A stretch of DNA of 4,207 nucleotides, from the NCBI RefSeq assembly GCF_003334815.1, contig NZ_QOWO01000078.1. One strand, given 5' to 3'. The number at the start of each line of letters is the position of its first letter. Position 1 is the stretch's first letter. This document shows, in pieces, positions 2,057 through 4,015 of this stretch. Source of the stretch: Escherichia coli. GTDB taxonomy: Bacteria > Pseudomonadota > Gammaproteobacteria > Enterobacterales > Enterobacteriaceae. The position numbers were made by a program, and so were the translations under genes. The notes beneath the pieces are model-generated. The model made no database searches. It was not told the DNA's origin and saw only the letters and a program-made list of their open reading frames with translations.

Positions 2057-4015
2057 TCAGGCGGCATCAGCCAGGTTATCGGTGCGTTCAGTGGCATCTG
2101 TCTGTGGATGTGGTGCACACATCCAGCCTGGAACCCAGCGGTTGTCTTTCATATGGTGCTCTGCATGTTCAGCCGCATCACCTTTCTTCATCTTCTCCGC
2201 GTCCCGTGCGGCACCGGACAGTCCGGCCTCATTCAGGGCTGTGATAATCTGCGGCTTTTTCAGGTGTCCGAAGAAGTTTGCTTTTGTCGGCTGCCACCAG
2301 TCGCGCATGTGGAATCCGATAGCGCTTTCCAGCGAGTCAAGCGGACTGCGTGACGTGTGACCACACTCACGGGTCTGGACACCGTTAAGGCTGCATGCGG
2401 TGCAGAAACTGAGCAGGGATAACAGCACCTCCTGACTGAGGGACAGGAATGTCGTCATGTCCCGTGACCATCCCTCCGGCAGCAGGGCTGCAAGACGGGA
2501 TTTTTCTGCCATCAGCGCCATGAATGCGGCACCTTCCTTCCCCGATGGCGCATCGCTGGTCAGCGAATAATGTTCACATTCCAGGCTGATTTGTGCTGGT
2601 TTACTGTACGCCCCGCTGCCAAACACATTCAGGCAGAGCGTCCATGCCAGCAGTGCCAGAGATTTGTCCGGCTGCTGCATGAGTGCCGCCTGGACTGCCA
2701 GCGTGCGCTCTGAGGACATTTTCGTCAGCAACGGCAGGCTGATTTCCTCCACTGACGCTTTCTCCTGCACCTGTTCCGTGCGGTCAGCGTCGTCAGCCAC
2801 GTCATCCTCACTGCGCAACTGCACACCACGCTGGACACACACGTTGCCATAACGCCAGGACACCACCACTCCACCTCCGGCACGCATCTCCGGCGTCCAC
2901 GCTCTGACCTTCGCCATGCAGCGCATCAGCTTCATTTCTGCTTCCAGCAGGTCAGATTCCTCACACTGGTTTTCCAGCGCGTCGTAACGCGTCATCAGTT
3001 CGTTCAGGCGTTCTTCTTCCGCCTCCGTCAGCACCGCTTCCGGCTCCGGCAGACAGCGGTATGTTCCGGCATCCTCACGGCACTCACCGACAGGCTCCAT
3101 GCGCCCGGCGCACCATTCCCAGCCTTCGGCTTCCCGAAGGTGTTCAGCGACAGCCTGGAGTTTTTCCAGCAGGGCGGCATCGAGCGCCACGCGGTCGACA
3201 TAACCGTCCCCGTCATCGCTGAACAAATCGGTGCGCAGTTCGTCTGGCGAGAAGGCATCACCCCCCACGAAGCGGAATTTACTGTTCCCCGCCACCGCCA
3301 CTTCACTTTCGGTAATCAGGTTGCGGATAACCCGCACATCCGGTTTACCACCCCATCCTGACTGGCAGGCGGCTTCAAACACCTGCACCTGACGCGCGGT
3401 GTCGTTCTCCAGCGCCAGCGCCTGACAGTGTTCGGTGGTGATGCGGTCTTCTGCCAGCGCATCAAGGATGACGGGTGCAAGGTCTGCCAGTTTCAGCATT
3501 CGCTGGACGTGGCGGGGTGAATAGCCCAGCAGGTCGCCAGTCTGCGCAGGTGTTTTGCCTTCCTGCGCCATTGCGCGGAATCCGGCAATCTGTTCGGCTG
3601 GGTGCATATCCCGACGATGACCGTTCTCGGTCATCGATGCAGCCGTCGCCAGTTCCTGCGGAATAATTTTCACGCGGACAGGCCAGTCAGCCGGAATGAT
3701 GCCACGCTCTGCCAGCATATTGAGTGCTGCCAGTCTGCGACCACCTGCGGCGACACCGTGGCGGTCACCAGGCAGGGCATGCACGACCAGATTCTGCAGC
3801 AGGCCAACGCCCTTAATGGACTCAGCCAGTTCGCTGACGGACTCCGCAGAATACGGCACCGTGCGCACATTCAGTGGTGACTTAATCAGCGAGGCCAGCG
3901 GCACGCTCACTTCCTCCGTCTGCGCCAGCAGGGCAGACAGGACGGTTTCCTGCGTTTTTGCAGATTTACGGCTTGCTTTGCGGGTGGTGTCTGGTTCAGA
4001 CTTTACTACTGACAT
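2057..4015 (-). CDS. ParB/Srx-like N-terminal domain protein with HTH and a long C-terminal extension (652 aa); leading-region ParB-like putative nuclease/NTP-binding protein
   Basis: Long ORF with ATG at 4013..4015 preceded by AAGGGG 7 nt upstream. The translation carries ParB N-domain signatures: GGRRLAAL (residues 91-98, nt ~3722..3751; compare ParB GERRxRA), ENGHRRDMHPAEQ (compare ENLQREDLNPIEE) and an HTH-like segment TPAQTGDLLGYSPRHVQRMLKLADLAPVILDAL (nt ~3455..3553). About 450 further residues have no motif I recognise except a CxxC-x9-CxH cluster (residues 538-553, nt 2357..2404) and a His-rich tail. Confidence 0.85.
   Translation of the reverse strand: MSVVKSEPDTTRKASRKSAKTQETVLSALLAQTEEVSVPLASLIKSPLNVRTVPYSAESVSELAESIKGVGLLQNLVVHALPGDRHGVAAGGRRLAALNMLAERGIIPADWPVRVKIIPQELATAASMTENGHRRDMHPAEQIAGFRAMAQEGKTPAQTGDLLGYSPRHVQRMLKLADLAPVILDALAEDRITTEHCQALALENDTARQVQVFEAACQSGWGGKPDVRVIRNLITESEVAVAGNSKFRFVGGDAFSPDELRTDLFSDDGDGYVDRVALDAALLEKLQAVAEHLREAEGWEWCAGRMEPVGECREDAGTYRCLPEPEAVLTEAEEERLNELMTRYDALENQCEESDLLEAEMKLMRCMAKVRAWTPEMRAGGGVVVSWRYGNVCVQRGVQLRSEDDVADDADRTEQVQEKASVEEISLPLLTKMSSERTLAVQAALMQQPDKSLALLAWTLCLNVFGSGAYSKPAQISLECEHYSLTSDAPSGKEGAAFMALMAEKSRLAALLPEGWSRDMTTFLSLSQEVLLSLLSFCTACSLNGVQTRECGHTSRSPLDSLESAIGFHMRDWWQPTKANFFGHLKKPQIITALNEAGLSGAARDAEKMKKGDAAEHAEHHMKDNRWVPGWMCAPHPQTDATERTDNLADAA

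Follow-up and report, generated by a model that had tools for sequence, protein, structure and literature searches.

An almost certain ortholog of the F-plasmid protein YfjB (HerB) encoded by an IncI plasmid's leading region

The closest described relative of the protein analyzed here is YfjB of the F plasmid (also denoted YubM or 'ParB2'; UniProt Q9S4W2; WP_000117173), which transconjugants make early on and for a short time only, from the single-strand promoter Frpo2, with none detected in donors (PMC9849209); in the IncI1 plasmid pESBL, strong induction of the homologous operons is seen no later than 15 minutes after transfer (PMC12672017). In a preprint that has not been peer-reviewed (7 July 2026), YfjB was characterized and renamed HerB, a homodimer that consists of four domains, with D3 and D4 lacking detectable homology to other proteins (PMC13370423). 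The same work reports the crystal structure of D1 of the F protein with CTPgammaS and Mg, and a cryo-EM structure of D4 (residues 421-636; 3.6 A map) as a domain-swapped helical dimer with a V-shaped core, in an account that mentions no metal (PMC13370423). HerB localizes to the nucleoid in a D4-dependent manner, and the nucleoid-associated foci, which arise also without the plasmid, additionally require R94, E130 and the helix-turn-helix (HTH) residues R168, R172 and K175, mutation of the latter three strongly reducing focus formation (PMC13370423). According to these data, much of which come from ectopic expression, HerB occupies about 156 regions of the chromosome that have no consensus motif in common, is not enriched on F by ChIP, alters the expression of roughly 870 genes, reduces the acquisition cost by about 10% and confers an advantage in repeated-transfer competition, and deletion of herB leaves the short-term transfer frequency and plasmid positioning unchanged (PMC13370423). 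The true partition system of F is sopAB, which is located elsewhere on the plasmid.

Several ParB-family CTP switches operate outside segregation: KorB is involved in transcriptional silencing, acting together with KorA on the operators of its own plasmid, and Noc is responsible for nucleoid occlusion, binding NBS sites and the membrane. The similarity of KorB (RK2, IncP; PDB 8qa8; E 0.46) and Noc (Bacillus; 7nfu; E 6e-10) to the protein described here is confined to the N-domain and the HTH, and unlike both, HerB acts on the recipient chromosome, without a known specific site. The canonical ParB/Spo0J clamps (1vz0; Caulobacter crescentus ParB, 6t1f) share with this protein the CTP-binding fold, the GxxRxxA and ENxxR motifs and the HTH but target their own replicon, whereas HerB is expressed transiently and, judging by the F data, targets the host chromosome. 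The ParB-like proteins of PRTRC (TIGR03734) and PRK13832 are, similarly, long (555-578 aa) and encoded by mobile elements, and their N-terminal ~160 residues can be aligned; both were rejected as family assignments, TIGR03734 at 67.1 bits against a cut-off of 278.6, with only residues 48-205 aligned, and PRK13832 at 34 bits against a cut-off of 640, with a match to the N-terminus only. Finally, ParB2 of the IncF plasmid pED208, which we liken to the present protein by gene context (an ssb-parB2-psiB-psiA cluster) and not by sequence, differs in having been reported as a substrate translocated by the F-type type IV secretion system (T4SS), with about 1e-3 recombinants per donor for a Cre-ParB2 fusion; transfer and SOS induction are unchanged when parB2 is deleted (PMC8406263).

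The stretch of DNA examined here (the window, 4207 nt in full) comes from an IncI-gamma/K1 plasmid and constitutes its leading region, with the gene order DUF905'-parB-like-psiB-psiA-orf and all substantial genes on the minus strand (Table 1). It is matched by more than 5000 PLSDB plasmids, the top match (99.8% across all 4207 bases) being the conjugative IncI-gamma/K1 plasmid pCFSAN004175 of Salmonella Saintpaul (MOBP, MPF_I), in which ardA, the hypothetical gene, psiA, psiB, the gene for the 652-aa ParB-like protein, DUF905 and ssb follow one another away from nikA/oriT. In that plasmid, a ~335-nt repeat that contains an internal inverted repeat is present in three copies, one of them upstream of ssb; this region resembles both Frpo regions of F (Frpo1/2) and is consistent with class-1 single-strand promoters. 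Within the window, promoter and terminator scans gave no excess over the shuffled expectation, and the Rfam search yielded no match. The hairpin in the spacer that precedes psiB lacks a T-run on the coding strand. The open reading frame of interest starts with ATG, with a Shine-Dalgarno-like AAGGGG 8 nt upstream. When recomputed, its coordinates and the positions of all motifs listed in the original prediction came out exactly the same, as did the identity of each of the residues named there, R93, R94, C538, C541, C551 and H553.

Table 1. Features of the IncI leading-region window and of the encoded ParB-like protein (nucleotide positions in the window)
Feature	Position	Strand	Basis or remark
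Hypothetical gene	259-855		pCFSAN004175 annotation
psiA	852..1571	-	NCBIfam NF010258, E 3.9e-113, above cut-off; pCFSAN004175 annotation
psiB (conjugation SOS inhibitor), next gene in the operon	1568..2002	-	NCBIfam NF010255, E 3.6e-80, above cut-off; annotation
GC-rich 12-bp hairpin	2020..2046	.	In the 54-nt spacer from the herB-like stop to the psiB start
CDS, 652-aa ParB-like leading-region protein (WP_000117799)	2057..4015	-	Near-certain ortholog of F YfjB/YubM/HerB; stop codon 2057-2059
D4, helical dimerization/nucleoid-association domain, residues 418-652	2060..2764	-	Conservation; AF2; F cryo-EM (PMC13370423)
AEHAEHHMKDNRWVPGWMCAPHP (tail), residues 615-637	2105-2173		
C538-x2-C541-x9-C551-x-H553 cluster, CTACSLNGVQTRECGH, residues 538-553	2357..2404	-	C538 and C541 in the final turn of a helix (AF2)
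D3, alpha/beta domain and long helical hairpin, residues 238-417	2765..3304	-	AF2 model
D2, ParB-type HTH DNA-binding domain (R168, R172, K175), residues 137-235	3311..3607	-	Pfam HTH_ParB 136-222, E 2.8e-7
ENGHRRDMHPAEQ, residues 130-142	3590-3628		
D1, flexible N-terminus and ParB CTP-binding domain, residues 1-136	3608..4015	-	Pfam ParB_N 41-131; Spo0J alignment
Box III ENGHRR	from 3628	-	In D1
Box II GGRRLAAL, residues 91-98	3722-3745	-	In D1
3' part of the DUF905 gene (yfjA homolog)	4077..4207	-	Directly upstream; truncated where the window ends
ssb	beyond the window		Further upstream of DUF905; pCFSAN004175 annotation, L001 16077-16310 and 16367-16894 cover DUF905/ssb

Comparison of the sequences and of the gene neighborhoods leaves hardly any doubt that this reading frame is the IncI-plasmid ortholog of F YfjB. 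The two proteins are both 652 aa long and share 608 identical residues (93%) without a single gap; the F gene is located between DUF905 (yfjA) and psiB, behind ssb, and the order ssb, DUF905, parB-like gene, psiB, psiA is common to F and pCFSAN004175. All four domains of HerB can be aligned with the IncI protein (652/652 residues), the HerB family being defined by at least 80% coverage of each of D1-D4 (PMC13370423), and the five residues tested by mutation in F HerB (R94, E130, R168, R172 and K175) are identical, as is the Cys cluster discussed below. The differences amount to 44 substitutions, e.g., H620F and H636R in F, and C321N, and to the plasmid itself, F being an IncF MOBF plasmid whereas the present copy resides on an IncI-gamma/K1 MOBP/MPF_I plasmid. 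Among the AFDB50 matches, there were only members of the same family, labeled YubM or ParB, and the PHROG match was to phrog_7783 (E 1e-252). Thus, we have to acknowledge that the gene is already known and that the present analysis adds nothing to its biology beyond the 2026 preprint.

The domain architecture, for which we adopt the D1-D4 limits of F HerB (PMC13370423), is that of a ParB protein only in its N-terminal portion. The ~235 N-terminal residues indeed comprise a true ParB CTP-binding domain and HTH, in line with the original prediction, which had placed the ParB signatures in the N-terminal ~190 residues: apart from the Pfam matches (Table 1), a sequence search of the PDB aligned residues 26-202 with Spo0J of Thermus thermophilus (1vz0, E 3e-16), placing GGRRLAA on GERRYRA and ENGHRRD on ENLQRED, and the CTP-motif residues are nearly invariant among 88 full-length family representatives with at most 55% identity (G91 and R94 in 86/88 each, E130 and N131 in 87/88 each). 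The same set of representatives, which underlies the conservation counts given throughout, has R or K in position 172 in 71 cases and K or R in position 175 in 79. Beyond the HTH, the canonical ParB C-terminal dimerization domain is replaced by D3-D4, ~415 residues of an unrelated fold. For residues 223-652, there was neither a Pfam match nor a match to the ParB C-terminal domain by sequence or by fold, and a PDB sequence search started with residues 232-652 retrieved chance matches only (E >= 0.17). The AlphaFold2 (AF2) model of residues 236-652 is confident (pLDDT 90.9), and no PDB fold match was found for D3-D4, with D3 being without known relatives. That D3-D4 has no solved structural relative agrees with the description of these domains as 'previously uncharacterized' (PMC13370423). 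NCBIfam and PADLOC likewise gave no match for the C-terminal half, in agreement with the original observation of a long C-terminal extension devoid of partition-protein features.

The initial homolog search yielded only relatives that are at least 96% identical, and diversity was obtained from the representatives of 50% clusters. When 1.84 billion such representatives were searched by phmmer with residues 232-652, 2171 matches were obtained at E <= 1e-3, of which 1100 reached E <= 1e-10. Among the full-length matches, almost all are 600-700 aa long and the match begins near residue 200-260, i.e., behind a ~230-aa N-terminus, so that D3-D4 is essentially always fused to the ParB N-terminus. Both domains show distinct conservation: D3 retains a DLF motif, EGWxW and three Gly residues, and D4 retains R437, T438, A440, P513, C538, W573/W574, K587, K610/K611 (nearly invariant) and A618, as well as the invariant W627 and P629, with the tail (637-652) not conserved. 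The basic residues K587, K610 and K611 fit the basic patch described for F HerB (PMC13370423). Outside the F/IncI clade, nearly all family members have a Y..AGG motif in D3 (Y..AGG....DLF), which this clade lacks. As for the distribution, tblastn with D4 detected the gene in at least 5000 of the 72,556 PLSDB records, mostly with at least 90% identity. The herB-psiB-psiA linkage is kept in homologs with 55% and 39% identity, and the plasmid of one such relative encodes a separate pair of ParA and KorB-type ParB 4 kb away, with TraM/SLT downstream. More distant relatives are found in phage-like or ICE-like settings, which agrees with the strong phrog_7783 match.

So could the protein nevertheless be what its RefSeq label, 'ParB/RepB/Spo0J family partition protein', says it is, namely, a conventional centromere-binding ParB whose ParA partner in plasmid segregation is encoded at another locus? 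The N-domain with GxxRxxA and the HTH are those of partition ParBs, and there is a match to TIGR00180 (parB_part), although at 55.5 bits it falls below the cut-off of 58.45. Against this possibility, no parA was found in the window or beside the gene in pCFSAN004175, where the neighbors are DUF905, ssb, psiB and psiA; the search of the window for parS-like inverted repeats returned a sole short-range palindrome, 1747-1766, which lies within psiB; and D3-D4 stands in place of the ParB C-terminal dimerization domain. Furthermore, F relies on sopAB, and its positioning is insensitive to the deletion of herB, with no ChIP enrichment on the plasmid; YfjB is not detectable in established donors; and the relative mentioned above has a ParA/ParB pair of its own on the same plasmid. 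On the score, the missing parA and parS, the non-ParB C-terminus and the F deletion and ChIP data, we reject a conventional partition role, which appears extremely improbable, in line with the earlier view that this is not such a ParB. Another possibility is that the protein is chiefly a T4SS substrate that is delivered from the donor and acts not on the chromosome but on the incoming plasmid strand, e.g., in its protection or in strand conversion. The translocation of Cre-ParB2 of pED208 is compatible with this scenario, and so are the neighbors SSB and PsiB, which act in processes related to single-stranded DNA. It is, all the same, an unlikely one, considering that YfjB escapes detection in donors and is made de novo by transconjugants (PMC9849209), that transfer and SOS induction are unaltered by the loss of parB2 (PMC8406263), and that HerB is not enriched on F and forms foci in plasmid-free cells (PMC13370423).

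Some proteins with the ParB/Srx fold are nucleases. Leading regions are enriched in anti-defense genes (PMC11541004). Both facts speak for the reading put forward in the original prediction, a ParB/Srx-fold NTPase or nuclease that would bind metal through C538/C541/C551/H553 and a His-rich tail and attack recipient DNA or defense factors. The cluster is mildly unusual for the composition of the protein, the strict pattern occurring in 0.9% of 20,000 shuffles (6.7% for a relaxed pattern, chosen after the fact), and 112 of 120 representatives that are at least 96% identical retain it, the other 8 having CCCR or CCYH. The proposed CxxC-x9-CxH metal site was set beforehand to stand or fall with its conservation among homologs, and it is not supported by the family at large, in which C538 alone, part of a helix motif LLAFCxA, is conserved (74/88). 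Of the others, C541 is present in 8/88 representatives and H553 in 6/88, with a gap in 46, whereas C551 is found in at most 3/88, with a gap in 39 and no residue present more than three times except Y (8), E (6) and S, D and A (4 each). In the AF2 model, C551 and H553 belong to a variable protruding loop (545-558) of lower confidence (pLDDT 67), and roughly every second family member lacks this loop. In the nearest clades, the four positions read CSCR (55% identity), CCMH (52%), CCYH (49%) and CREH (47%), and fragments at 58-71% identity have CVFR, CFHF, CCNH, CCMH, CCCY and, once, CCCH. The His-rich tail fares no better: its histidines differ even between the IncI protein and F (H620F, H636R), there is no His consensus at positions 617, 620, 621 and 636 among the 88 representatives, position 633, occupied by Cys in this protein, has Arg or Lys in 65% of family members, and the invariant residues in this part of the protein are W627 and P629. 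No metal-binding domain, zinc finger or nuclease was matched in Pfam, NCBIfam or the fold search, and PADLOC matched 0 families; the N-domain carries the full set of CTPase motifs followed by an HTH, as in the DNA-clamp ParBs; and no metal is named in the cryo-EM account of D4 (PMC13370423). Thus, the metal-binding nuclease reading is already largely refuted by non-conservation, as judged from the sequences, and we regard it, along with the anti-defense activity that it implies, as highly improbable. The cysteine cluster with its protruding loop is specific to one clade, in which CCYH or CCCR is tolerated. It could be imagined that, in the F/IncI clade only, CxxC...CxH around the D4 loop forms a lineage-specific metal- or redox-sensitive site that tunes the nucleoid association of HerB or the binding of a partner. 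If true, such a site would tie the reported effects of HerB on redox, iron and anaerobic-respiration genes to sensing, but the natural CCYH and CCCR variants make such a sensor distinctly unlikely.

The hypothesis that appears to accommodate the findings is that the IncI protein, like HerB, is a homodimeric four-domain CTP switch of the ParB family that employs the HerB mechanism, and we consider this quite probable. The present analysis contributes to this hypothesis the orthology, the domains, the conservation of the CTP-binding and HTH residues, the operon context, the lack of parA and the non-conservation of the Cys/His residues, whereas the expression timing, the dimer structure, the binding of CTPgammaS, the ChIP peaks and the transcriptome and fitness effects come from the literature on F. 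Under this scenario, the ssb-DUF905-herB-psiB-psiA operon would lie behind a hairpin-forming single-strand promoter, such that herB would be transcribed from the incoming single strand, transiently and only in the new transconjugant. The D4 domains would form a stable, nucleoid-associated, domain-swapped dimer core, from which two D1-D2 'legs' would bind CTP, through the GGRR of Box II and the ENxxR of Box III, and DNA, through the HTH, and would probably close into a clamp around DNA of the host chromosome, without parS; the clamp-loading and closure step is one that we infer for HerB itself. Binding at many chromosomal regions would then alter host transcription and metabolism and lower the cost of plasmid acquisition. 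That the IncI protein behaves like the 93%-identical F protein, notwithstanding the 44 differing positions, is likewise to be expected from the comparison. Because the functional account comes from one preprint on the F protein, the mechanism is less certain than the orthology, and given that deletion of herB or parB2 does not change short-term transfer, the phenotype must be subtle. The original proposal of early expression and action on recipient DNA is thus borne out in part: the location in the leading region and the early, transient and chromosome-binding behavior of the F protein (PMC9849209; PMC13370423) support it, and the nuclease and anti-defense component is not retained.

In practical terms, neither the partition annotation nor the idea of a metal-dependent nuclease should be carried forward. 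Two features that emerged from the family comparison, the clade-specific Cys cluster and the absence of the Y..AGG motif in the F/IncI clade, are possibly useful for further work on HerB. The gene is among the most widespread on enterobacterial resistance plasmids and, for decades, has been wrongly annotated as encoding a partition protein; its placement in the HerB family suggests, instead, a likely role in transiently reprogramming the recipient once it has acquired the plasmid by conjugation.

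Translation initiation of the herB-like gene at the ATG that yields the 652-aa product is accompanied by a good Shine-Dalgarno sequence and agrees with the F protein that was used for structures, whereas many of the database copies (P0005, P0009, P0012 and others) are annotated as proteins of 678-682 aa that use an upstream start, which would overlap the DUF905 gene. Within the D3 region of the protein (residues 238-417), the alignment of the HerB family reveals a nearly invariant Y-x-x-A-G-G-x4-D-L-F motif at the start of the region, with the GG doublet present in 84 of the 89 sequences. 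In the F/IncI clade, which includes both the protein encoded here and the experimentally studied HerB of F, this motif carries a 2-residue deletion and reads AFSPDELRTDLF, so that the studied F HerB lacks one of the most conserved features of its family.

Positions of the features discussed in the text
Feature	Locus	Position	Strand	Description
Site of the D3 motif deletion	window	about 3242-3253		residues 255-258
GC-rich hairpin	window	2020-2046		12 bp; in the 54-nt spacer from the herB-like stop codon to the psiB start
Gene of 198-209 aa	window	259-855 (listed ORF 259-888)	minus	directly after psiA
P0186 gene	L005	1913-3823		homologue of the HerB-like protein, 33% identical
P0262 gene	L006	5704-7806		HerB family member, 700 aa, 28% identical

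The hairpin that precedes psiB is not adjoined by a T-run on the coding strand and hence might not be a terminator; it may instead be an mRNA-stabilising or processing element. Further along the leading region, between psiA and ardA, lies a gene whose start abuts the psiA stop; its product has no NCBIfam match and no significant Pfam match, and comparison with PHROGs yields only weak matches to phrog_660 and phrog_924, both families of unknown function.

Could repeated sequences help in understanding how these genes are expressed? The matching plasmid pCFSAN004175 (L001) contains, outside the stretch covered by the window, three copies (16964-17300, 10621-10953 and 7752-8079) of an element of approximately 335 nt with an internal inverted repeat; the copies are 80-87% identical, and one of them, located upstream of ssb, is similar to Frpo1 and Frpo2 of F. 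These elements presumably represent ssi1-3, class-1 single-strand promoters that would drive the operon with the herB-like gene. On the ardA side, window positions 1-157, upstream of ardA, comprise a repeated segment with 92%-identical copies in pCFSAN004175 (18951-19105) and F (L002, 6396-6550), both upstream of a klcA-like antirestriction gene. This repeat matches the 'class 2' single-strand promoters described upstream of ardA and klcA for pESBL and F (PMC12672017). Folding of window positions 1-260 as ssDNA gave no clear gain over shuffles (z -1.6).

The P0186 gene is flanked by genes for a tail assembly chaperone and a holin, and the HerB-like protein itself has a match to phrog_7783 (E 1e-252), a full-length PHROG family whose function is unknown. 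Judging from this gene setting and this match, the HerB family is not confined to plasmids and is also found in phages or prophages of Proteobacteria. Another relative, P0262, is encoded near genes for YdaT and a Peptidase_S24 repressor, in surroundings that resemble a prophage. Alone among the 150 best representatives, this protein carries at its C-terminus (residues 665-698) an additional DNA-binding domain of the H-NS type (Pfam Histone_HNS, E 3e-13), and such a fusion is in keeping with a role of the HerB family in nucleoid binding.
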